Shown: positions 12,155 through 56,860 of the stretch, piece by piece
Layout of the letters: every line of letters begins with the position of its first letter
Position numbering within the stretch: the first letter of the stretch is position 1
Origin: a virus
Length of the DNA stretch: 64,000 nucleotides
Direction: 5' to 3' (one strand)
Virus record (IMG/VR): IMGVR_UViG_3300030060_002972
Coordinates: 19,748-83,747 of that record
Position numbers and translations under genes: made by a program
Notes under the pieces: generated by a model
What the model was told of the DNA's origin: nothing
The model's database searches: none
The model's input: the letters and a program-made list of their open reading frames with translations, nothing else

Positions 12155-12394
12155 ATGACTGACCACAACTATAACAAACTACGTATGTATACATATAAAT
12201 GTGCTAGTACTTATGATTTTAAATTACAAGATGCAGAAGATATACTCCATGATGCCCTGTTAGATTTTATAGAATCAGGGGTTGACATTACAAAGCTAAT
12301 ATGGAAGTATATAGGAAAGCACAGAGAACGTAGACATAGAGAAGGCAAACGTCAGATTAGCATGTCACACTTTGAAAACAAGGGGGAAGTATGA
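12155..12394 (+). CDS. Small protein resembling an isolated sigma70 region 2
   Basis: DAEDILHDALL resembles ECF sigma region 2.2 (DAEDxxQExFL). Confidence 0.4.
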   Translation: MTDHNYNKLRMYTYKCASTYDFKLQDAEDILHDALLDFIESGVDITKLIWKYIGKHRERRHREGKRQISMSHFENKGEV

Positions 12395-12876
12395 ATAAAA
12401 CATTACAGACACTATTCCCAGATATTCCTGTATATGAAAACAAAATAACTAAATTTTTAGAAGTATGTTACAACCTAGCCTGGTCATACAGAGCAGCTGG
12501 TAAAGAACTAAGCATAAACCACAAGACAGTAAAAAACATATTAGACAGTGTAAAAAACACGCCACAATATCATACATTTATGGGCAAACTAGAAGTACAG
12601 ATTAAAAATTTTGCTGACCCAAAATTTTCTCACACAGTATTTGACAGATATGAACAGCAACTAGCTGATATAGAAACAAGATTAAAACGTGCTGATAGAC
12701 AGAATGATAAGGCACAATCCCTGCAATTATTAAAATTAAAACAAGTCATACTTAAAGACCAGCTTAGAGCTAGTATGGTAGCAAGTAAAGATAAAGAAGA
12801 AATAGCTACTGTGCATGATGCAATATCTAGTCTGTCAGAAACAGCTTGGGAGGAAATGAATGAAAAAGTCCAATGA
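12391..12876 (+). CDS. HTH protein, putative terminase small subunit
   Basis: HTH WSYRAAGKELSINHKTVKN followed by coiled coil; upstream of TerL; homolog 53692-54177. Confidence 0.55.
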   Translation: MNKTLQTLFPDIPVYENKITKFLEVCYNLAWSYRAAGKELSINHKTVKNILDSVKNTPQYHTFMGKLEVQIKNFADPKFSHTVFDRYEQQLADIETRLKRADRQNDKAQSLQLLKLKQVILKDQLRASMVASKDKEEIATVHDAISSLSETAWEEMNEKVQ

Positions 12877-13156: not shown

Positions 13157-13429
13157 ATGAGAAAGGTACACAAAAGTAAAACAGGTGGACTTACTGCTGC
13201 AGGTAGAGCCCACTTTAAAAGAACAGAAGGAGCTAACTTAAAAGCTCCTGTTAGCAAAGGCACAAATCCAAGACGTGTTAGCTTTGCTGCAAGATTTGCT
13301 GGTATGAAAGGTCCTATGAAAGATAGCAAGGGTCGTCCAACCAGAAAAGCACTAGCCCTAAAAAAATGGGGCTTTGGCAGTGTTGAGGCTGCACGTAAGT
13401 TTGCAGCTACACATAAAAAGAAAAAATAG
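13157..13429 (+). CDS. Small basic phage protein (GGLxAAGR family)
   Basis: GGLTAAGR...NLKAP...SFAAR...ALKKWG; homolog 54267-54536. Confidence 0.8.
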   Translation: MRKVHKSKTGGLTAAGRAHFKRTEGANLKAPVSKGTNPRRVSFAARFAGMKGPMKDSKGRPTRKALALKKWGFGSVEAARKFAATHKKKK

Positions 13430-13439
13430 GAGATTTATT

Positions 13440-13604
13440 ATGCCAATGGGTAAAGGAACATACGGAAGTAAAAGAGGAAGACCAAAGAAAAAGAAGACTG
13501 GTACTTTAAAAGGTAGACAAAATAACTTACCAGCAGCACTAAAAAAAGCTATAGGTGCAAAAGGTCCTCGTGGTAAAAATATGAAAAAGAGTTACGGGAG
13601 ATAA
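13440..13604 (+). CDS. Small basic protein MPMGKGTYGSKRGRPKK
   Basis: AGGAG RBS; same N-terminus at 54549. Confidence 0.75.
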   Translation: MPMGKGTYGSKRGRPKKKKTGTLKGRQNNLPAALKKAIGAKGPRGKNMKKSYGR

Positions 13605-13611
13605 GAATATA

Positions 13612-13827
13612 ATGGCTATAGTAGGAATGGTAGGCAGACAATTAATAAAACTAGGTCTTTCTAAAGAAGCCCGTAAAAAAGTTAAAAAGGGTATACAGCA
13701 AGGTCATCTTAAAGTTTCTGGTAAAGAAATAAAAATGACTCCTAAAGGTAGTTATAAACAACAACAGACTAATAACCGAGAACTAAAAAAACTTAATCAG
13801 AAAGATAAAAAACGAGGTAAAAAATAA
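13612..13827 (+). CDS. Small Lys-rich protein
   Basis: Operon position; very basic. Confidence 0.6.
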   Translation: MAIVGMVGRQLIKLGLSKEARKKVKKGIQQGHLKVSGKEIKMTPKGSYKQQQTNNRELKKLNQKDKKRGKK

Positions 13828-14210
13828 TGGCAAAATTAAAGTCTAAAGTTGTAGAAAGAGCTAAAAAATATGAAACTAAGAAAAAATTACAGAAAAAACG
13901 TACTCTCATGGGTAAGGGCAAAGGCAGAGGTATTAAAGCAGATAAACCTTTAAAAAAACTAGATAAGTCTTTGCGTAGAATACGTAAAAACCCAGGTGGT
14001 TTTGCAGCATCTGTTGTTGACGCTGGTTCAGTAGTAGCACCTGCAAGTATTGCTAGGAAAGGAATTAAAATTGTAGGTAAGACTGATGTGGGTAAAAGAT
14101 TACTAAAAGACATAGAAAGATTAATGAAAAAAAATCCAAGAAAAACTGCTGAGGTAATAATGAAAAGAAATAAATTAGCAAATGTTCCTAGTAGTAAAAA
14201 AAGAAAATAA
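13827..14210 (+). CDS. Lys-rich protein
   Basis: TAATG coupling; GAGG RBS. Confidence 0.65.
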   Translation: MAKLKSKVVERAKKYETKKKLQKKRTLMGKGKGRGIKADKPLKKLDKSLRRIRKNPGGFAASVVDAGSVVAPASIARKGIKIVGKTDVGKRLLKDIERLMKKNPRKTAEVIMKRNKLANVPSSKKRK

Positions 14211-14259
14211 AACGGGTTGTGGCACAGGCAATGAGAATTGCAGCCAGTACAACCTGTTT
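14210..14259 (+). ncRNA. Putative structured RNA with GAGA tetraloop upstream of TerL (copy A)
   Basis: Nested stems with a G-U pair; covaries with the copy at 55227-55279. Confidence 0.6.
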
Positions 14260-14267
14260 GGAATAGT

Positions 14268-15782
14268 ATGATAAGAGACTGGTGGTACAAAGATGAAAAG
14301 ATGTTAGCGTTGTGGCGTAAAATCCACAGCATGACATCTGAGGAATTTGCTAATCTTGATAAAAAAGTTAAAGCAGAGTTACAATACTGGTACGGGAATC
14401 TTTTCTTTTTTAAACCGTATCCTGCTCAGAAGCCTATCGTGGACGATAATCACTTTAGTGTGTACGTACATGGTAATAATAGTTCTGGGAAGTCTTATTG
14501 TTGTGCTGCTAAAACGGCTTACAATGTTATAGGTTGGCATCCTAACTATACTATAGATAAACCTAAGTATGGTAATAGAATTATCTGGGCATTTAGTCCT
14601 TCATTTGATATTCAAAGAACTTCAAGTCAGGTACATTTGTTCTCAACTGATACGCCCAATGATATAGGACTACTGCCCTCTATAGAAAGTATAGAAAAAC
14701 GTGGTGGTAAAGTAGCCTGGGGTAAAAACAGATGTATTGACTTTGTTAGATTCTGGGACGGTACAGTCTTAGAATTTAAATCTGCTGAGATGAAAACACA
14801 AAACCTACAAGCGTCTGGTATTGACTATTGTTGGTTTGATGAGTGTCCATCACACACTATGCATGATGAGATTCTTGCTAGGTTGTTAAGAAAATCTGGT
14901 AAGATGGTTATGAGTTTTATTGTAGAAGATACTACTAGTAATTACATAGTACAAGATATCTATGGTAGAAACGAAGAAGATGAAGATACTTCGTTTCACT
15001 TTATAGATGTATATGACAATCTATCTTTAGAAAAAGAAGAGATAGAAAGATATAAGAAAAGATTTACAGAATCAGCTATGCACTGGAGATTCAGTGAAGG
15101 TGGTAAGTTTCAGTTACAACCAAGGGGTGCACTAGTTTATTCTGATTTTTGTGAAACTCATATGGTAGATGATTTAGCAGAACAATACGACCCACTAAGA
15201 ACTTTGTGGAGAAGTTGGGACATGGGGTTTGTTAGACCTGCATGTGTAGGTTTTCAAATTGACAAACACGGTAGAAAGAATGTATTATTCAGCATGATGG
15301 GGCACAATATACAGCTTACAGATTTTATAGACGAAGTGGAGAGTTATTGCAATGAAATATTACCTAAAGTTGTTGAAAAAATGGATATACTCCCACATGA
15401 TGCTAATAGAAAATATGATGTATCTCCTCACAGTGCTCTTGATATATTTGATGGTAAAAAGTTAAAAGCAGATACTATATATGTAAAAAGAGACATGTCA
15501 CATGCACAAGTTAATGAGGAGCTTAAAAAATTTACAAAGGGAGAACCAATGCTTAGGTTAGATTCTAAACACTGTGTATTACTAGCACAATGCTTAGCTG
15601 GTTATACTAGACATGAGCAAACAGGTCAACCTAGGAAAGATAATTATTATGAGCACATATCTGATGCATTTAAGTTAGGGTGTTTCTATGTGTCAAGAAA
15701 ATTAACAGAAACAAATACCGAGCTAAAAGAACCACAGTATTTTGGTCTAGAGTTTGGTGGAGGAAGTAATAGGATATTATGA
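14268..15782 (+). CDS. terL: Terminase large subunit
   Basis: Walker A GNNSSGKS, Walker B WFDE, nuclease WDMG and HISDA. Start set to MIRDW by comparison with copy B. Confidence 0.9.
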   Translation: MIRDWWYKDEKMLALWRKIHSMTSEEFANLDKKVKAELQYWYGNLFFFKPYPAQKPIVDDNHFSVYVHGNNSSGKSYCCAAKTAYNVIGWHPNYTIDKPKYGNRIIWAFSPSFDIQRTSSQVHLFSTDTPNDIGLLPSIESIEKRGGKVAWGKNRCIDFVRFWDGTVLEFKSAEMKTQNLQASGIDYCWFDECPSHTMHDEILARLLRKSGKMVMSFIVEDTTSNYIVQDIYGRNEEDEDTSFHFIDVYDNLSLEKEEIERYKKRFTESAMHWRFSEGGKFQLQPRGALVYSDFCETHMVDDLAEQYDPLRTLWRSWDMGFVRPACVGFQIDKHGRKNVLFSMMGHNIQLTDFIDEVESYCNEILPKVVEKMDILPHDANRKYDVSPHSALDIFDGKKLKADTIYVKRDMSHAQVNEELKKFTKGEPMLRLDSKHCVLLAQCLAGYTRHEQTGQPRKDNYYEHISDAFKLGCFYVSRKLTETNTELKEPQYFGLEFGGGSNRIL

Positions 15783-31195: not shown

Positions 31196-34100
31196 TTGGG
31201 TATTAAAAAACAGTTAACTATAGACAAACTAAAAAATTACAAGAAGGTTCCTATAGGAGGACAGGATACTATTACTGCTCCTCAAGTAGATTTACAATCT
31301 ATAACACAAAATACTTTTAACAAATTAAATACTCAGAAACAAGAAGAAGAACTTAATACTGATTTAAACTTAGAGATTAACGCTCCTACTATAGTTAAAC
31401 CTGATACATATATTAGTGACAATGAATTAAATGCATCTAGTTTATTTAGTCTAGAAAATTTAGTTGGTAGAGAAAATAGTGATTATATAAATAACGCTAT
31501 AGACGAGTTTTTACCTAACTTTCATATTGACCCTGGAGAAATTATTTATGGGCGTAAAAATTCTTATGAAAATCCTACAGCAGCACAAGCATTTTATAAT
31601 GGTCTTATGCCTGGGCGTGACCGTGACATAGCAGATTTTGCAGAACGTGTAGAGTTTGCCAGAGCAAATGGTATTAATCCACTAGATACTTACATAGATA
31701 GTTTTATGTGGGGTTTAGGTGAAGCATTACAATTTTATGGATACTGGAGAATGTCAGGTGCGTTTGCAAAAAATCTATTAATACCAGCATTAACTCGTAT
31801 AGGTATATTAAGTAAAAGTAAACGTATTGCAGAATTAGGTGAAGGTACAGAAAAAGTTGTAAATAGATTACCTAAAGTATTACAACAAGATGCTAAGAAA
31901 TTTTTAACAGACAATAAATACAGACAACAATTAATAGGAACAATTGGCGTTGAATCAAGTATTGTAACGGCAGTAGAAGACGATATTGTAGACGGCATAT
32001 TGTACACTGTGGGTTATCCAGCTGCATTTAAGTACGGTTTTATTCCTGGATTCAAAGGGTTTATAGATGTTGCCGGTAAAGGGCTAACTAAGGTTGTAGA
32101 TAAAGGTAAAAATTTAGTTATTAAATCTCAAACAGAAGATGATATTCCTAAACCATTAAATAAAATTACATCACTAATACAAAAAGTATTAGATGGCACT
32201 CAAAAAGATGGTATAGAAAACTTGGGTACAAATACCCAAAAAGTTATTAAAGAGCTAGAAAATATTAGTGTTGAAGGACAAAAAAATTTAGGTGATTTAA
32301 TAAAAACATCTGCAGCATTACAAAATGATGTGCAAAAATTATTAAAAGTATTTAACACAAAAGTAGTAGGTATTATCAACAACATTGGTAACACTACAGC
32401 TACAAAAAATATTAAAGCATTACTAGATTCTCCTGACTTAAAAAATGGAGATTTTGAAACACTAATTAAATTTACAAAATTAATTGCTAATGAAAGCAAA
32501 CACGGGCATAAACAAAATAGAAAAAAATTCTTTGTTAGTGTGTTAGATGAAGCAGATGATATGCTAAGTAAGTTTGGTAATAGTGATGTAGCAACTATTG
32601 TAGCACCCGGCAAAATACCTTTAACTAAAGATAATTCAAGAATACTTTATAGTAAAATTAAAACTAAGTTACAAGATTTAGTTGGTCACACAAAAGGACA
32701 AGCTGCGGATGTAGATAGCACATTACGTCAAGCATTAGGTTTTAACACAAGTCAAAGCCCAGACGCTATATTCAAAAACTTATTGCATAAATTACAGGGA
32801 AAATTTGCAAACAAAGTAAATAAAAATTCTCAAACAGATTTAGGGACGTTGTTAAATTTAGCTAAAGAAAACCCTAAAGGCATAACAAAATTAATAGACA
32901 ATATATCAGCTCTTAATGACTACAAAAAATTTATATCAAATGAAACTTTTGATAACCAAAGTAGAAATTGGAAAAAATTAGTATACCACATAAAAAATGT
33001 ACAAGCTGTAACCGGCATGACCGGAGTTAAAAGAAAAATTAATAAAATCTTAGACACCAAAAGAGATTATAACAAGTTGTTTGATGTAGCCGGACGTAAA
33101 ACTAGTGAAGTTAAAATTCAAAAAGGTAAAAAAGGAAAAACAGAAACTGTTACTATTATAGAACAAGAAGATAGATTTGGTTATAAGCAAGACATTGCTA
33201 GAAAACAACGTCTTAGACAAGAGCTAGGCATACCTATTACTCGTTCAGTTAGTCTACGTCAGTTATTAAATCGTTCTCAGAAAGGGTTTACAAGAGAAGA
33301 ATATGATACAGCATTAACTTTATTGAGAAAAGAAATAGAAGAAGCAGGTCTATTGCCACAAGACTTAAGTAAAGAATTAGGTAGACAATTAACTAGACGT
33401 AATAGAATTAAACGTAGTGCATTTAATACAAGAGTAAGAAATGATTTAGCTAGTGATGAAGCATTAGATGAAATAGCACAGCGTTTTGTAGATGATATAC
33501 AAATAAAAGCAGAGATGGCTAAATATGGTATAGACCCTAGTATTGTTAACAGAAGTAGTTTAGACAAATTAACTAAACGTAAAAAACGATTAAGAGAATT
33601 ACATACAGATTTAAACAATCAGTTATTTAAGTCTAATACTAAAATACAAACTCACATCAACAAAATTGGCAGCATTGTAAATAAAATAAGTAACGGTAAA
33701 GAAACTCTGGCTATGTTAAACCCATTCAAAAACATACAAGAAATTAATCAGGGTATTAAATTTGTTAGTAGATACCAACAAGGGCAGTCTCTAGAAGTAG
33801 GTGACGGGTTAGCAAATGCAACTAAAATGTTTGCTGCCATGGAAAAAAATATTTCTAACACTATTAAAAGTGGTGCTCAAAATTCTAACAATTTGAACAA
33901 AGAATTCTTTAGGTTTATGAATGATTACCTAAATGAGAAAAACTTAAATACCCCTGAGTTACGTGACGTACAAGAAGTTATTGCCAGCGTATTAACTAGC
34001 GGGCGAACTACAGCAGAGATTAAAACTAAAGCAAGAACTGGTTTATACAAAACATTAGTAGCTCATGTGTATGATGATTTGCCTGGTATAGGACACATAC

Positions 34101-37100
34101 TGCAAGTTAGGGGTAAAAAAGAAGATGCTCAGTTTATTAAAAAACTAATTAGTGGTACAAAACAAGATAAAATAAAAGGTGCATATGAATTAACTAGACG
34201 AATTTTAACTGATGAACAATTAATGATGGATGTTATAAATAAAAATACACAAACACAAACATTATTTTTGTTAATGAAATCTATAGATAATCCTAAATTA
34301 AAACCTGTAGTAAAACAAATTTTGCAAGCAAACAAAACACAAACATCTGTAGTAGATTTATTACATAACATGGCTAAACAAGAAAACGCTACTAACAAAC
34401 CAAGCGTATCACTTACTAGCACTGGAGATACACGATTAGTTAATGAAGAATTACAAGACGCTACCGGTGGTGAAAGCGGTGTTATAAAACGTGTTTACAA
34501 TTATTTCTTTAAGGAATATCAACAAATAATGAGAGACAGTGGTTTTGAACCAGGTGTAGCTATACAAAAATTAGCATCTAATGCAGAACAATCATACACA
34601 AGAGAAGCTAGTAAAGGCGGATTAATAGAAACTACAGTATTAGAAGTAAAACAAAAATTAAAAAATACACTAGATGAAGTAAATAGTGGGTTAGCACCAG
34701 GCGCTGATAAATATACCAAAGATGATATTGATAATATTTTGGTTCAATTAGATAGATTAGCTAGTGGAGATAATGGTAAAGCAGCTGCAACTAAAATATT
34801 TAATGCGTTGCCAGGACCTGTACAAAGATATGTAGGTGAATATCATTCTACATTACGTAAAGCCTTGGAACGTTTTAATAGCAAAGTAGATGACATAAAT
34901 CTTATGGTAGAAAAAGGTGAAGTGTTTCCTGATACAGGTATAAATGTACCTTGGAAAGACCTTAGTCTAGAACGAGTTGACCCGTTAGATTTTTATTTTC
35001 CTAGATTTAGTAACGTAGAAAAAATGAACATAGAAAGATTTGATGTTTTTGCTACAATTAAATATGCAGACGGACACACTCAACGTGTACGTGTAGTTAA
35101 TGAAGCTGTAGATACCTTAGAAGATGTGCATAGAAAAATTATTGACCATGCAGATGTAGGTTTACCACCAGGAGCCGTATCATTAAATTACAATGTATCA
35201 CCTACACAACCATTGTTACGAAGTATTGACCAATACAATCCTACATCACAAGCACAGCAAGTTGTAGACGACATTGAAAATTTATTTCAAGTTGATTACA
35301 AAACCGTTAAGTCTGCATTAGACAAAGGCGGTTATAATTATCAAACTTTTTATAACGATGCGTTTATTGCTGGTCCAACATTTGCAAAACAAAGAACAGG
35401 TTTTGCTGCTAATTATGACACTGACCATTTAACAGTATTAAATACATATTTAATGAAAGAATCTAGATATAGAAATTTTATTGAACCTGTAATAAAACAT
35501 GACGCATTAAAAAGATACATGAAAGATACTCCGTTAGTAGATAAAAATGGCAACACTATGACAGGCACTATGGATTACGTTAGTCACATAGTAGATAACA
35601 TGTTAGGTAGACCACAACCAGCTACAGTTATGTTTAACAAATTACTACAAGGCATTATTAAAGGTGGCAAGTTATACAAAATACCTGGCATATCTAAGGA
35701 TGCTGATGTTAGAAGTTTCATAGATGCTAACTCTACATTTAACTATTATCTACAGTTTGCAGTAGACATACCAGCATCGTTAATACAAAGCACCATGGCA
35801 GTTACTTCTGTGTTACCGGCAGCGGGTAGGTATGCTTTTAGTATGCAACCTATGAAAGATGCTACAAATTTATTGTTAAGGTCATTAGTAAAAAATGACA
35901 GAGTTGCAAAAAATCCTATATTAAAACGTGTGCATAAAAGTTTCAAAAATAAATTAGATAAATTAGACACACAAACTAAACAAAAATATGATGACTTAGA
36001 ACAAGTATTTGTAGACATGAATCTTGAAATAGATAGTGCTCATGCTGTGCATATGGCAGACCAATATACAGCACAATTTGGTGTTGAAGCTAGTAATTTC
36101 TTAAAACGTAGCTATCACACAATAGGTAATGCTGTGACATATGCATTTAGAAAAGGTGATATTATCCCTAGACGTTTAGCTGCTACTTTAGCCTATGAAA
36201 ATGCCGATGCAGCTTTCAATAATGTTGCTAAAAAATTAAATAAAGCTGAAGTAGATTGGTTAGCTGGACCATTAAACACAGAAAAAGTTAGAAGTTTATT
36301 AAGACAAAAAGGTTTAACATTGAATCCATTGGAAGAAGAAACTATGAAACTTATGGTTAATTCTTCTAACCGTCAATACACTAATACTGGGCGTACTTAT
36401 GCAACTAAGACACAAGGTGCGTTTTACACTAAAGAAAAAGTAGGGATGCAATGGAAATACAAAGCTAACAGAAACTTTAAGAAAGATTTAGCTAAAAATT
36501 TTAGTGAAGAAACTAACCACAAATACAACTCAGCTAACAACACTGGATTTATGAATGAAGGATTGTTAAAAAACTTTAACTTGTACAAAAAATTTGCAGT
36601 AAAAGAATTTAGTAGGTTAGTGGGTTATGGTAAAAAAGGACAATACCCGGCACTAGCTGCTAGTCTGTTAGCGTATCAACAGATTGCAGGAAGTGTAGGA
36701 TTACCTTTTGCAAGAGACTTAAAACAATTATTAGAATGGGCATACTACGGGTCAGAAGTAATAGCTAAACCAAAAACAGAAGCTAATCCAGCTTTATTAG
36801 ATATGGAATCTAACTTAAGAGCCTATGCAGCAGACAGCCCACTAAGAAAATATGCGTTGTTTGGTCTTGCATCTACAGCGGGTATTGATTTAACACAAAG
36901 TGCATCTGTTAATATGGAAGGTTACTTTAGTCCAAGAACACCTATAAATGGATTTGGTGATGTTGTAGGTAATTTAGTGTTAGGAGATACTTATAGACGT
37001 ATGAAATCTATGTTTAATCGTATAGCTAACTTAAAATCACAAGGCAACTTATACGAACTAGGCGGAGAAACTGGATTACAAAAATACATTAGAGGTTTTG

Positions 37101-37648
37101 AGGCTGCGGCACCTTTTATTCCAATGGGTGAACAAGCAGTAGACGCCTTACAAGTAATCAACGGTATGCAACCTAGAGATTATAGTGGACGACTTATGGA
37201 TGTGTATGGTAGACAGGATGAGTTAAGCCAAGGTAACGAAGCTATACTAAAATTATTAGGATTTAATACTATGGATGAGGTATTATATAAACAAACATCT
37301 TCATTAATTAGTGGAAAAACTGGTAAAGAGTTAAGAGAAATAGACAAAATAAAACGAAGACATTTTGTTAATGATGCTTTTGGATTAATTACAGATTACA
37401 TAAATGCAACTAACGAAGGTGAAGTTGATGCAGAAGAAGTTGATGACATTATAGAAGAATTGTCTGAGATTGTCACTTATTTTGGTGGGGATAAACAACT
37501 GTTAAATGCTATGAATTATGCATTTGTGACAAACAATGTGCCTAGAGATATATTAAAATTAAAACGAGGCACAGCTAAACAGAAACAATTAATTATAAAC
37601 AACTTAGATATTTTATTACGCCAAACTAACAAAGGAGGACAAGACTAA
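31196..37648 (+). CDS. Large (2150 aa) putative ejection/internal virion protein
   Basis: Size and position; helical; no RNAP DxDGD motif seen. Confidence 0.55.
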   Translation: MGIKKQLTIDKLKNYKKVPIGGQDTITAPQVDLQSITQNTFNKLNTQKQEEELNTDLNLEINAPTIVKPDTYISDNELNASSLFSLENLVGRENSDYINNAIDEFLPNFHIDPGEIIYGRKNSYENPTAAQAFYNGLMPGRDRDIADFAERVEFARANGINPLDTYIDSFMWGLGEALQFYGYWRMSGAFAKNLLIPALTRIGILSKSKRIAELGEGTEKVVNRLPKVLQQDAKKFLTDNKYRQQLIGTIGVESSIVTAVEDDIVDGILYTVGYPAAFKYGFIPGFKGFIDVAGKGLTKVVDKGKNLVIKSQTEDDIPKPLNKITSLIQKVLDGTQKDGIENLGTNTQKVIKELENISVEGQKNLGDLIKTSAALQNDVQKLLKVFNTKVVGIINNIGNTTATKNIKALLDSPDLKNGDFETLIKFTKLIANESKHGHKQNRKKFFVSVLDEADDMLSKFGNSDVATIVAPGKIPLTKDNSRILYSKIKTKLQDLVGHTKGQAADVDSTLRQALGFNTSQSPDAIFKNLLHKLQGKFANKVNKNSQTDLGTLLNLAKENPKGITKLIDNISALNDYKKFISNETFDNQSRNWKKLVYHIKNVQAVTGMTGVKRKINKILDTKRDYNKLFDVAGRKTSEVKIQKGKKGKTETVTIIEQEDRFGYKQDIARKQRLRQELGIPITRSVSLRQLLNRSQKGFTREEYDTALTLLRKEIEEAGLLPQDLSKELGRQLTRRNRIKRSAFNTRVRNDLASDEALDEIAQRFVDDIQIKAEMAKYGIDPSIVNRSSLDKLTKRKKRLRELHTDLNNQLFKSNTKIQTHINKIGSIVNKISNGKETLAMLNPFKNIQEINQGIKFVSRYQQGQSLEVGDGLANATKMFAAMEKNISNTIKSGAQNSNNLNKEFFRFMNDYLNEKNLNTPELRDVQEVIASVLTSGRTTAEIKTKARTGLYKTLVAHVYDDLPGIGHILQVRGKKEDAQFIKKLISGTKQDKIKGAYELTRRILTDEQLMMDVINKNTQTQTLFLLMKSIDNPKLKPVVKQILQANKTQTSVVDLLHNMAKQENATNKPSVSLTSTGDTRLVNEELQDATGGESGVIKRVYNYFFKEYQQIMRDSGFEPGVAIQKLASNAEQSYTREASKGGLIETTVLEVKQKLKNTLDEVNSGLAPGADKYTKDDIDNILVQLDRLASGDNGKAAATKIFNALPGPVQRYVGEYHSTLRKALERFNSKVDDINLMVEKGEVFPDTGINVPWKDLSLERVDPLDFYFPRFSNVEKMNIERFDVFATIKYADGHTQRVRVVNEAVDTLEDVHRKIIDHADVGLPPGAVSLNYNVSPTQPLLRSIDQYNPTSQAQQVVDDIENLFQVDYKTVKSALDKGGYNYQTFYNDAFIAGPTFAKQRTGFAANYDTDHLTVLNTYLMKESRYRNFIEPVIKHDALKRYMKDTPLVDKNGNTMTGTMDYVSHIVDNMLGRPQPATVMFNKLLQGIIKGGKLYKIPGISKDADVRSFIDANSTFNYYLQFAVDIPASLIQSTMAVTSVLPAAGRYAFSMQPMKDATNLLLRSLVKNDRVAKNPILKRVHKSFKNKLDKLDTQTKQKYDDLEQVFVDMNLEIDSAHAVHMADQYTAQFGVEASNFLKRSYHTIGNAVTYAFRKGDIIPRRLAATLAYENADAAFNNVAKKLNKAEVDWLAGPLNTEKVRSLLRQKGLTLNPLEEETMKLMVNSSNRQYTNTGRTYATKTQGAFYTKEKVGMQWKYKANRNFKKDLAKNFSEETNHKYNSANNTGFMNEGLLKNFNLYKKFAVKEFSRLVGYGKKGQYPALAASLLAYQQIAGSVGLPFARDLKQLLEWAYYGSEVIAKPKTEANPALLDMESNLRAYAADSPLRKYALFGLASTAGIDLTQSASVNMEGYFSPRTPINGFGDVVGNLVLGDTYRRMKSMFNRIANLKSQGNLYELGGETGLQKYIRGFEAAAPFIPMGEQAVDALQVINGMQPRDYSGRLMDVYGRQDELSQGNEAILKLLGFNTMDEVLYKQTSSLISGKTGKELREIDKIKRRHFVNDAFGLITDYINATNEGEVDAEEVDDIIEELSEIVTYFGGDKQLLNAMNYAFVTNNVPRDILKLKRGTAKQKQLIINNLDILLRQTNKGGQD

Positions 37649-53691: not shown

Positions 53692-54177
53692 ATGAACAAC
53701 ACACTAAGTAAATTATTCCCTGAAACTAATGATTACAATACTAAGATATGGAAATTCCTAGAATTAAGTTACAGCAAAGGCTGGTCATACCGTGCAACCA
53801 GTAAAGAATTAAATATTGACCACAAGACAGTAAAGAATATATTAGAATCTGTAAAAGATACAGAAACATATAAAGTATTTATGACAAAAATAGAAGCTAC
53901 TGTGCAATCATTTAGTGATAAAAAGTTTAAGCACACTATATTTGACAGATATGAGAAGACATTGGCGGATTTGGACAAGAAAATAAAACAATCTGAAGAT
54001 AATGATGACAAGAAAGACGTAGTTAACTACTATAAATTAAAATTAGCGGTGCTAAAAGACCAATTAAGAGCATCACTAGCTGTGCAAACTACAGAAACAC
54101 AACAAATTGCTATAGAAAATGCAATAACTACGTTACAAGATGAAGCATGGGAGGAGTATGGTGAAAAAATCCAGTAA
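53692..54177 (+). CDS. HTH protein, putative terminase small subunit
   Basis: WSYRATSKELNIDHKTVKN; AGGAGG RBS. Confidence 0.55.
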   Translation: MNNTLSKLFPETNDYNTKIWKFLELSYSKGWSYRATSKELNIDHKTVKNILESVKDTETYKVFMTKIEATVQSFSDKKFKHTIFDRYEKTLADLDKKIKQSEDNDDKKDVVNYYKLKLAVLKDQLRASLAVQTTETQQIAIENAITTLQDEAWEEYGEKIQ

Positions 54178-54548: not shown

Positions 54549-54695
54549 ATGCCAATGGGTAAAGGAACATACGGTAGCAAAAAAGGGAGACCAAAGAAGA
54601 ATGGTGCCAAAAAATTAATGGCAAAGAACCCTAAGATGCCAAAAGGTGTAGCTAAAGCTATTGCTAAGAATATGAAGAAGAAGAGGATGGGATAA
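54549..54695 (+). CDS. Small basic protein MPMGKGTYGSKKGRPKK
   Basis: Read manually; AGGAGG RBS. Confidence 0.7.
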   Translation: MPMGKGTYGSKKGRPKKNGAKKLMAKNPKMPKGVAKAIAKNMKKKRMG

Positions 54696-54696
54696 A

Positions 54697-54897
54697 ATGC
54701 CTTGGTGGTTATTAAAAATAATCCCATCTATATCTAAATTTTTATTTGGCTGGTGGAGTAAACGTGGTCAAGATAAAAAAGATATAGAATTAAAGTCTGC
54801 TAACCACGCATTGTATGTAAAAGAGTTAGAGGAACAGGCAAAGAAAGATGCAAATAAAAAAATTGATAATGCTACTGATTATCTTGATAAGCCTTAG
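54697..54897 (+). CDS. Putative i-spanin-like membrane protein
   Basis: N-terminal hydrophobic segment plus coiled coil; overlaps a lipoprotein gene. Confidence 0.45.
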   Translation: MPWWLLKIIPSISKFLFGWWSKRGQDKKDIELKSANHALYVKELEEQAKKDANKKIDNATDYLDKP

Positions 54898-55069
54898 CGG
54901 TTGTTCAATATTAAGTAGCAAAGTAAAATTTATTAAACCTGAGTGCCCACAAGCGCCTGACTGTAGTAATGCAGAAAACAAAGTAGAGTGCTGGGCATAT
55001 CAGAAACAAAGTTATAAAGCATGTATTAATATGCATGACAAAGCGTGGGATAAGTTAAATAGTTATTAA
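54848..55069 (+). CDS. Lipoprotein, putative o-spanin
   Basis: Lipobox LSGC after a hydrophobic signal; Pro/Cys-containing mature part. Confidence 0.55.
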   Translation: MQIKKLIMLLIILISLSGCSILSSKVKFIKPECPQAPDCSNAENKVECWAYQKQSYKACINMHDKAWDKLNSY

Positions 55070-55226
55070 CATTCCATAAGGCATGGATAAAAAGCCTCTC
55101 ATAGTTCATGAGTTACAAGAACAGGGAGGTAGATATGAAAAATATCAGAGCTGCTCAATTGAGAGTATATCAAAGGGCACAAAGGAAAAGAAGAAATTTA
55201 TGTACGTTCATCAAATTAAGTTATTG

Positions 55227-55279
55227 CTAGATAGGTTGTGGCGAAGGCAAGGAGACTTGCAGCCAAACAACCTGTTTAG
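55227..55279 (+). ncRNA. Putative structured RNA with GAGA tetraloop upstream of TerL (copy B)
   Basis: CTAGATAGGTTGT GGC gaag GCAAG gaga CTTGC a GCC aa ACAACCTGTTTAG. Confidence 0.6.
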
Positions 55280-55339
55280 TAAGACAAACATATTACACAT
55301 AATAATCCAAGTATCATTACTAGGAGTGATATCAATTTT

Positions 55340-56860
55340 ATGATAAGAGACTGGTGGTACAAAGACCCTAAGATGTTAGCGTTGTGGCACAAGATACACA
55401 ATATGACACCAGAGGAATTAGATAATGTGGATAAAAAAATTATTCAAGAGTTACAATACTGGTATGGAAACTTATTTTTCTTTAATCCGTACCCTGCACA
55501 AAAGCCCATTGTGGACGATAATAATTTCAGTGTTTATGTACACGGTAATAATTCTAGTGGTAAGTCATATTGTAGCGCAGCTGTTACAGCTTATAACGTA
55601 ATAGGTTGGCATCCTAATCTAGAGATAGCTAAACCTAAATATGGTAATAGAATTATCTGGGCATTTAGTCCATCGTTTGATATACAACGTACTTCTAGTC
55701 AGGTGCATTTATTTTCTACAGATACTCCTAATGACATTGGGTTATTACCATCTATAGAAAGTATAGAAAAACGTGGGGGTAAAGTAGCCTGGGGTAAAAA
55801 TAGATGTATTGATTTTGTAAGATTTTGGGACGGTACAATCTTAGAATTTAAATCGGCTGAAATGAAAACGCAAAACCTTCAAGCCTCCGGTATTGACTTT
55901 TGCTGGTTTGATGAGTGTCCGTCCCAGACAATGCATGATGAGATTCTTGCTAGGTTGTTAAGAAAGTCTGGCAAAATGCTTATGAGTTTTATTGTAGAAG
56001 ATGCTACTAGTAATTATATTGTACAAGATATATATGGTAGGAACGAAGAAGATGAACATACTTCGTTTCATTTTATTGATGTATATGATAACCTATCCTT
56101 AGAGAAAGAAGAGATAGAAAGATATAAGAAAAGATTTACTGAGTCAGCTATGCACTGGAGATTTAGCCAAGGTGGTAAATTTCAATTGCAACCACAAGGT
56201 GCTATTGTATACCCTGACTTTAGTGAACAACACGTAGTGGACGATTTAACAGAACAGTATGACCCATTACGTACATTGTGGAGAGGTTGGGACCTAGGGT
56301 TTACACGTCCCGCATGTGTTGCTTTTCAAATAGATAAAAACGGCAACAAGAATGTTCTGTATTGTAAGATGGGTAAAAATATACAGCTAACTGATTTTAT
56401 AGATGAAGTTAATGCATACCAAAATGAGATAATGCCTGAAGTGCAAAGCACTATGGATTTGTTACCTCATGATGCTAATAGGAAATACGATGTGTCTCCT
56501 AACACTAGTGCAACAATATTTAAACGCAAAGGATTGCAAACAGATGTTGTTTATGTTAAAAGAGACACCAGTGTCGAATTAGCTAATGAAGAGTTAAAAG
56601 AATTTAGTGCGGGTATACCTAAAATTAAATTAGACTCTAAGCATTGTACACTTCTAATACAAGCATTGTCAGCATATACCCGTGAAGAACAAACAGGACA
56701 GCCAAGAAGAGATAAATATTTTGAACATGTAAGTGATGCGTTTAAACTAGGATTGTATTACATATCAAAAAAATTATTACAAACAGATTCGTTTGCACCG
56801 AATGAACCTAAATATTATTCTATGGATTTTGATGTAAACAAAGAGAGGTTACTAAATTGA
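55340..56860 (+). CDS. terL: Terminase large subunit
   Basis: GNNSSGKS, WFDE, WDLG, HVSDA. Confidence 0.9.
   Translation: MIRDWWYKDPKMLALWHKIHNMTPEELDNVDKKIIQELQYWYGNLFFFNPYPAQKPIVDDNNFSVYVHGNNSSGKSYCSAAVTAYNVIGWHPNLEIAKPKYGNRIIWAFSPSFDIQRTSSQVHLFSTDTPNDIGLLPSIESIEKRGGKVAWGKNRCIDFVRFWDGTILEFKSAEMKTQNLQASGIDFCWFDECPSQTMHDEILARLLRKSGKMLMSFIVEDATSNYIVQDIYGRNEEDEHTSFHFIDVYDNLSLEKEEIERYKKRFTESAMHWRFSQGGKFQLQPQGAIVYPDFSEQHVVDDLTEQYDPLRTLWRGWDLGFTRPACVAFQIDKNGNKNVLYCKMGKNIQLTDFIDEVNAYQNEIMPEVQSTMDLLPHDANRKYDVSPNTSATIFKRKGLQTDVVYVKRDTSVELANEELKEFSAGIPKIKLDSKHCTLLIQALSAYTREEQTGQPRRDKYFEHVSDAFKLGLYYISKKLLQTDSFAPNEPKYYSMDFDVNKERLLN

Follow-up and report, generated by a model that had tools for sequence, protein, structure and literature searches.

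A covarying GAGA-tetraloop hairpin upstream of terL in a clade of marine podoviruses, a candidate cis-acting mRNA element

Introduction

Why does a small hairpin with a GAGA tetraloop stand just 5' of the terminase gene terL in marine podoviruses, and does it act as RNA or as DNA? The question is raised by a window of 64,000 nucleotides, bases 19748-83747 of an 83.7-kb IMG/VR record. The record consists of two diverged sister marine podovirus genomes (A and B) of ~41 kb each, arranged head to tail with a period of about 41 kb, and the hairpins of the two genomes are 41,019 nt apart. The original prediction, made from the letters of the window, described a covarying RNA structure before both terL genes and proposed a cis-regulatory element for terminase expression, a processing site or a small packaging-associated RNA. 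To our knowledge, nothing is known about late-gene control in the phages that carry it. We examined the fold, covariation, distribution and genomic position of the hairpin and weighed the explanations that these allow.

Results

Genome layout

Each genome had a leftward replication module encoding a family A DNA polymerase, a primase and a DnaB-like helicase. The rightward block ran from a 161-aa HTH gene through small basic, AT-hook-like or lysis genes to terL, a T7-type portal gene, a capsid gene and onward (Table 1). Another record, G004, likewise ended with a second partial terL copy.

The 161-aa HTH gene was found 1-1.8 kb 5' of terL in all clade members (45-100% identity), and a relative at 31% identity was present in two hairpin-less loci, L272 and L274. 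The AF2 model of this protein (pLDDT 82) had no PDB match; the protein is a putative small terminase (TerS) or regulator. Pfam and PHROGs searches of the ORFs scanned in both genomes returned no RNA-binding protein, RNase or RNA polymerase family, and the phages appear to be without an RNA polymerase of their own. A 2150-aa protein of the ejection module had no Pfam match, and an N4-like virion polymerase was raised for it as a question.

Small Lys/Arg-rich ORFs with an AT-hook-like GRP core (MPMGKGTYGSK[RK]GRPKK...) were located between the DUF6321 gene and terL, a stretch whose content differed among relatives. In genome B and many relatives, an overlapping i-spanin (N-terminal TM and coiled coil) and o-spanin lipoprotein (lipobox LSGC) were encoded just 5' of the hairpin, where genome A had Lys-rich genes. 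A Com/mom-like zinc-finger protein was considered for the Cys-rich upstream gene and rejected because that gene is the o-spanin, as judged by its lipobox and its overlap with the TM/coiled-coil gene.

Table 1. Positions of the two hairpins and their neighboring features in the window
Feature	Position	Strand	Remarks
161-aa HTH + long-helix protein, genome A	12391..12876	+	context gene
AT-hook-like ORF	13374-13604	+	Lys/Arg-rich
Upstream Lys-rich ORF, genome A	13827-14210	+	127 aa; TAA stop 14208..14210 at 5' foot of hairpin A
Hairpin copy A	14210..14259	+	66.3 bits (R1) and 73.1 bits (R2), covariance models
Copy A P1	14210-14220/14249-14259	+	11 bp, one G.U
Copy A P2	14221-14223/14243-14245	+	GGC/GCC, then 3-nt 3' bulge AGU
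Copy A P3	14228-14232/14237-14241	+	GCAAU/AUUGC; internal loop ACAG/A
Copy A tetraloop	14233-14236	+	GAGA
SD-like GGAA of terL A	14260-14263	+	directly past 3' arm of hairpin A
terL, genome A	14268..15782	+	504 aa; phrog_2, Terminase_6N
Ejection-module protein	31196-37648	+	2150 aa
161-aa HTH + long-helix protein, genome B	53692-54177	+	context gene
AT-hook-like ORF	54549-54695	+	Lys/Arg-rich
i-spanin, genome B	54697-54897	+	overlaps o-spanin
o-spanin, genome B	54848-55069	+	lipoprotein
Upstream basic peptide ORF, genome B	55135-55230	+	31 aa; TAG stop 55228..55230 inside hairpin B 5' arm
Hairpin copy B	55224..55282	+	67.3 bits (R1) and 69.4 bits (R2)
Copy B P1	55224-55239/55267-55282	+	longer, 16 bp with G.U pairs; bulge AA
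Copy B P2	55240-55242/55262-55264	+	GGC/GCC; internal loop GAAG/A
Copy B P3	55247-55251/55256-55260	+	GCAAG/CUUGC
Copy B tetraloop	55252-55255	+	GAGA
Insert between hairpin B and terL B	55265-55339	+	75 nt, non-coding; own AGGAG
terL, genome B	55340..56860	+	506 aa

Hairpin structure

Both sequences were present where they had been predicted, and the U-A to G-C change of the loop-closing pair, the G.U pairs and the asymmetric internal loop were all as described. The element was a single hairpin of ~55 nt. As plus-strand RNA, copies A and B folded at -21.6 and -30.2 kcal/mol (z of -4.6 and -8.4), and none of 200 shuffles was as stable; the minus strands folded more weakly (z of -2.5 and -3.3). 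The core pattern occurred exactly 2 times in the 64 kb, compared to 0 expected. A search of the whole window against Rfam 15 gave 0 matches at the gathering threshold; at a permissive E<=10 around both copies, only chance matches far below threshold were returned (MicF at 17 of 79 bits, mir-67, UCA1).

Among the copies from related phages, P1 had 9-16 bp, P2 was always GGC/GCC, and P3 had 4-7 bp and was closed by GAGA. The bulge was on the 3' strand, 2-3 nt long and A first, and the 5' side of the internal loop had 3-5 A-rich nt, its 3' side 1-3 nt. P1, P2 and P3 together made 17-23 bp in most copies. In L186-type copies, P1 was 5-6 bp and the total 12-13 bp, with fold energies of merely -12 to -16.4 kcal/mol compared to -21.6 to -30.9 kcal/mol in the P1-bearing types. 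Since the L186-type relatives shorten P1 yet keep P2, P3 and GAGA, the apical part appears to be the functional core.

Covariation and fixed bases

Covariation was assessed in a MAFFT alignment of 31 distinct copies, with a CM-realigned set as the second alignment (31-34 distinct sequences overall). In the MAFFT alignment, 85% of cells were paired, compared to 30-45% in slid controls. Changes on both sides were found in 13 of 22-23 pairs over the 31-34 distinct sequences (13 of 23 in the 31 copies); in P1, for example, GGUUGU/ACAACC was replaced by GGUUCU/AGAACC, GGAUGU/ACAUCC and CCUUG/CAAGG. The covariation score was 0.371 compared to 0.158 in shuffles, was reached by 0 of 500 shuffles, and was in agreement with the CM-realigned set. 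Wobble in the core helices was strongly one-sided, with 42 G.U and 7 A.C pairs, which identifies the sense strand as the folded one. The predicted plus-strand, covarying structure was thus borne out in a much larger set than the two copies from which it was drawn.

The covariation, the wobble bias and indels of lengths not divisible by three together indicate a sense RNA and exclude three alternatives, namely a coding sequence, a cruciform and a duplex DNA site. The spacing from GGC to GCC varied from 25 to 29 nt, which further argues against recognition as double-stranded DNA, and core lengths in this range, not being multiples of three, led us to reject a coding reading. A hairpin promoter on the template strand was also rejected because the minus-strand fold has A.C mismatches. 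An integron attC-like site was considered as well; attC cores have the order R''(RYYYAAC)...R'(GTTRRRY), and the order here, GGTTGT...ACAACC, is the reverse, with no integrase family among the ORFs scanned.

Several bases did not vary in the 31-34 distinct copies: GAGA, GGC/GCC, the A-U pair 28/35 in P3, the U-A pair 14/51 in P1 and the first bulge A (A46). Of 70 synonymous third positions at the beginning of terL in these phages, only 5 were invariant. Neutral sites of terL nearly all vary, so the fixed bases are selected for their identity and not for pairing alone. Stability alone would permit other GNRA loops, and the invariance of GAGA therefore counts as selection on specific bases. An invariant loop and P2 amid saturated neutral change call for a sequence-specific partner.

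Distribution among relatives

TerL peptides, which are blind to the hairpin, were used to retrieve relatives from IMG/VR and metagenome contigs, TARA and JGI ocean samples among them. This gave about 60 loci of the clade, with TerL at least 73% identical. All clade loci with enough 5' DNA carried one copy, on the terL strand and 10-240 nt 5' of terL, so the positional tie to terL, which had been offered as a point on which the prediction could fail, held throughout. There was one copy per genome in 5 of 5 near-complete genomes, and in the record a covariance-model search picked up a single plus-strand copy in each genome, with everything else at noise level.

The hairpin was absent from the loci with TerL 41-55% identical, which were taken from IMG/VR; further TerL relatives on long contigs, P0018 (59%) and P0019, P0024 and P0033 (45-50%), were outside this set. 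At hairpin-less loci, terL is directly adjoined or overlapped by the upstream gene, or its 5' flank is taken up by tRNA genes or other coding sequence. No relative was found in the 185,579 prokaryote genomes of GTDB, and cultured phages had no close TerL, the best being N4-like and Vibrio podoviruses at 25-30% identity. Matches to a loose pattern in IMG/VR were mostly due to chance. One recurrent look-alike, the L134 family, was rejected; it lies in coding sequence, has no GCC partner and is missed by the covariance model.

Position between the upstream stop and terL

The stop codon of the upstream ORF was always inside the 5' arm, 8-13 nt 5' of GGC. The upstream gene itself has been replaced at least five times by unrelated kinds (Lys-rich and other basic proteins, AT-hook-like proteins, a 31-aa Arg-rich peptide, an o-spanin lipoprotein) with the position of the hairpin kept, and the upstream genes of A and B were unrelated, as predicted. 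Genome A and L001 have an identical hairpin, TerL that is 99% identical and different upstream genes, which makes a sharp mosaic junction. Recoding by frameshift, read-through or bypass was rejected because the kind of stop, the frame and the upstream gene all differ among copies and more stops follow in frame.

The 31-aa Arg-rich peptide ORF of genome B (MKNIRAAQLRVYQRAQRKRRN...) has a strong GGAGG SD. It differs from the L007 copy by 11 synonymous changes and 1 conservative change, and is therefore a real micro-gene. The peptide is similar to arginine-rich RNA-binding peptides and is confined to B/L007-type genomes.

In most copies, the SD of terL comes immediately past the 3' arm, which would place stop and start side by side in the folded state. 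In three lineages, insertions of 75-241 nt separate the hairpin from terL, exclusively on the 3' side. The B-type insertion is 75 nt and non-coding. The L186-type insertion, 86-89 nt, forms a second, G.U-rich hairpin of 28 pairs with 3 compensatory pairs (L186:2415-2503, L198, L208, L226, L227). In L192:1962-2205 and L206:1760-2003, the insertion is a 71-aa ORF; its start is spaced as the terL start is in other loci, and its end has an ATGA overlap with terL. In every fold, whether the 5' arm was included or left out, the ribosome site of terL was unpaired, and no conserved alternative fold sequestered it. Given such inserts and a ribosome site that is never sequestered, the hairpin may or may not regulate terminase expression.

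Discussion

The explanation that we favor, and hold tentatively, is that the hairpin is a clade-specific, single-copy, cis-acting element of the sense mRNA that is read sequence-specifically by a trans factor and punctuates entry into the structural operon led by terL. P1, P2 and P3 would hold a fixed surface made of GAGA, the A-U pair two steps below the loop, GGC/GCC and flanking adenines. Its reader would most likely be a phage or host protein, or else the transcription or translation machinery. By binding, the factor would mark where the structural operon begins, at the junction with the changeable accessory and lysis genes, and may set how much of the upstream expression continues into terL and the genes after it. 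The means would be control of processing and stability or of read-through, rather than occlusion of the ribosome site.

That 75-241 nt are tolerated before terL suggests an action independent of distance. Tolerated 3' insertions and an open ribosome site also argue against simple steric repression of translation, and favor processing and stability or read-through into the ~27-kb operon. The cis-acting regulatory or processing role put forward in the original prediction fits a place inside a polycistronic message. We infer both the binding of a factor and the effect of that binding, whether on processing, read-through or translation, from these features. Against this explanation, a ribosome terminating at the upstream stop would open P1, and a stable protein complex is hard to square with that; a search for a binding partner with Pfam and PHROGs in both genomes identified no candidate.

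A site for host RNase III of the T7 R1.1 kind, with one cut at the 3' bulge or with binding but no cutting, is the alternative that survives best, and we consider it unlikely. A cut would leave the upstream mRNA with a protective 3' hairpin and release terL as a message of its own. The hairpin lies between cistrons as the RNase III sites of T7 do, and its 17-23 bp in most copies, with bulge and internal loop, speak for such a site; the 12-13 bp of L186-type copies speak against it, the quasi-continuous helix of an RNase III signal being about 20-22 bp. T7 has about ten such signals, and one site per genome rather than many also speaks against this reading. Substrates of E. coli RNase III span about two helical turns; where they contain internal loops or bulges, only one strand is cut and a protective 3' hairpin is left (PMC1540722). 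A bulge-helix-bulge motif permits binding with no cut, and uR1.1, the minimal substrate derived from R1.1, is capped by a GNRA (GCAA) loop (PMC1540722). Since E. coli RNase III has no tetraloop sequence requirement (PMC1540722), the invariant GAGA is unexplained by RNase III alone.

It is rather improbable that the hairpin is a factor-independent terminator, an attenuator or a 3'-end stabilizer that closes the upstream transcription unit. A stable hairpin begins at the upstream stop in every variant, insertions are found exclusively on its 3' side, and it is GC-rich, as an intrinsic terminator would be. However, the U-run of such a terminator is missing. No U tract followed the stem in the copies examined, in line with the absence of a U tail noted originally; the 3' flank was CCUGCCUAGUUGG in many copies and GCUACAUUAC in the L186-type, with GGAAUAG, CCUAGUUGG and GCUACAUU also recorded, and a terminator scan left the hairpin unflagged. 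A-type genomes have no promoter between the hairpin and terL, so terL must be transcribed through it, and no promoter was called nearby. A terminator also does not require an invariant loop and invariant P2 bases.

The hairpin could instead be a processive-antitermination or polymerase-modifying RNA comparable to nut or put, in the form of a single bulged GAGA hairpin that would load a factor onto, or reprogram, host RNA polymerase at entry to the ~27-kb operon. We think this improbable as well. Entry to a long operon is where lambda nut is also found, but no terminator enrichment of the kind that antitermination would require was seen in the operon, and a boxA (YGCTCTTTA-like) had no match within 100 nt of either copy with one mismatch allowed.

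Quite improbable in our view is an element that acts at the DNA level, either as a plus-strand ssDNA hairpin or as a terminase (pac-like) or recombination site co-inherited with terL. Strict linkage to terL, the single copy per genome and the sharp mosaic junction between A and L001 are consistent with it, and four independent IMG/VR contigs (L003, L244, L248, L254) terminate within the hairpin, in three cases at the loop or beside it. These ends are explained equally well by assembly forks at a strain-variable junction, whereas near-complete records and a double-length record run through the hairpin, with no fixed distance to contig ends. Compensatory changes, bulges and the bias of G.U over A.C are unfit for duplex recognition or a cruciform, and the variable spacing of the half-sites and the distance of 1-1.8 kb to the putative TerS gene also speak against a DNA site.

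A free-standing small RNA acting in packaging, as the phi29 pRNA does and as the original prediction had allowed, is very improbable, since nearness to terL is the sole point in its favor and the element is a single hairpin of about 55 nt that lacks the multi-helix features of pRNA, has neither a promoter nor a terminator of its own, holds the upstream stop in its 5' arm and is followed by the terL SD after its 3' arm.

The mRNA element that we favor would be a clean candidate RNA motif, being small, strongly covarying and single-copy in each genome, with recognition surface and genomic address both fixed. Phages that carry it turned up widely in marine metagenomes (TARA and JGI ocean samples). 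Should a partner come to light, the pair could offer a handle on how phages seemingly without a polymerase of their own keep the expression of accessory and lysis genes apart from that of structural genes, and possibly a compact RNA-protein pair for engineering. If it is merely a processing or stability hairpin, it would be an ordinary device with a new spelling.

Comparison with known systems

The phi29-type pRNA has at least 120 nt, several helices and its own transcription unit; unlike it, the present element is a single ~55-nt hairpin between a stop codon and an SD. A bulk screen of IMG/VR in 2023 (the DNAVirus_X set) gave 14 unnamed candidate RNAs that are consistently upstream of a putative large terminase (PMC10690425). 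These were likewise predicted from IMG/VR and have no assigned function, and the hairpin may be among them. A literature search found no description of the hairpin, and its spelling and architecture are new insofar as there was no Rfam match and no paper, with the DNAVirus_X set compared by description only.

Like the T7 R1.1 RNase III signals, it is an intercistronic hairpin in phage mRNA whose lower and upper stems flank an asymmetric interruption and whose loop is a GNRA tetraloop, has about two helical turns and can leave a stabilizing 3' hairpin on the upstream message (PMC1540722). Unlike R1.1, it is single-copy in each genome, its loop and P2 bases are invariant, some members are too short, and cleavage is hypothetical here.

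Lambda-type nut consists of boxA and a boxB hairpin that is bound by an Arg-rich N peptide. The terL hairpin differs from nut, which has a pentaloop, by its true tetraloop, its extra P1 and P2 helices and a position that is not promoter-proximal. No N-like protein was seen to be conserved across the clade; the 31-aa Arg-rich peptide, under purifying selection, is found in the B/L007-type only. The resemblance to nut lies in a short covarying stem with a GNRA-type loop of invariant sequence and, in the B-type, in the gene for an Arg-rich peptide that ends inside the hairpin. HK022 put is a factor-independent antitermination RNA that acts in cis, in the nascent transcript, on polymerase; it has two stem-loops in about 70 nt just downstream of early promoters. 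Unlike put, the present element is a single hairpin with no sequence resemblance to it and no Rfam match. Like put, it is a cis-acting structured RNA that could act on polymerase independently of distance.
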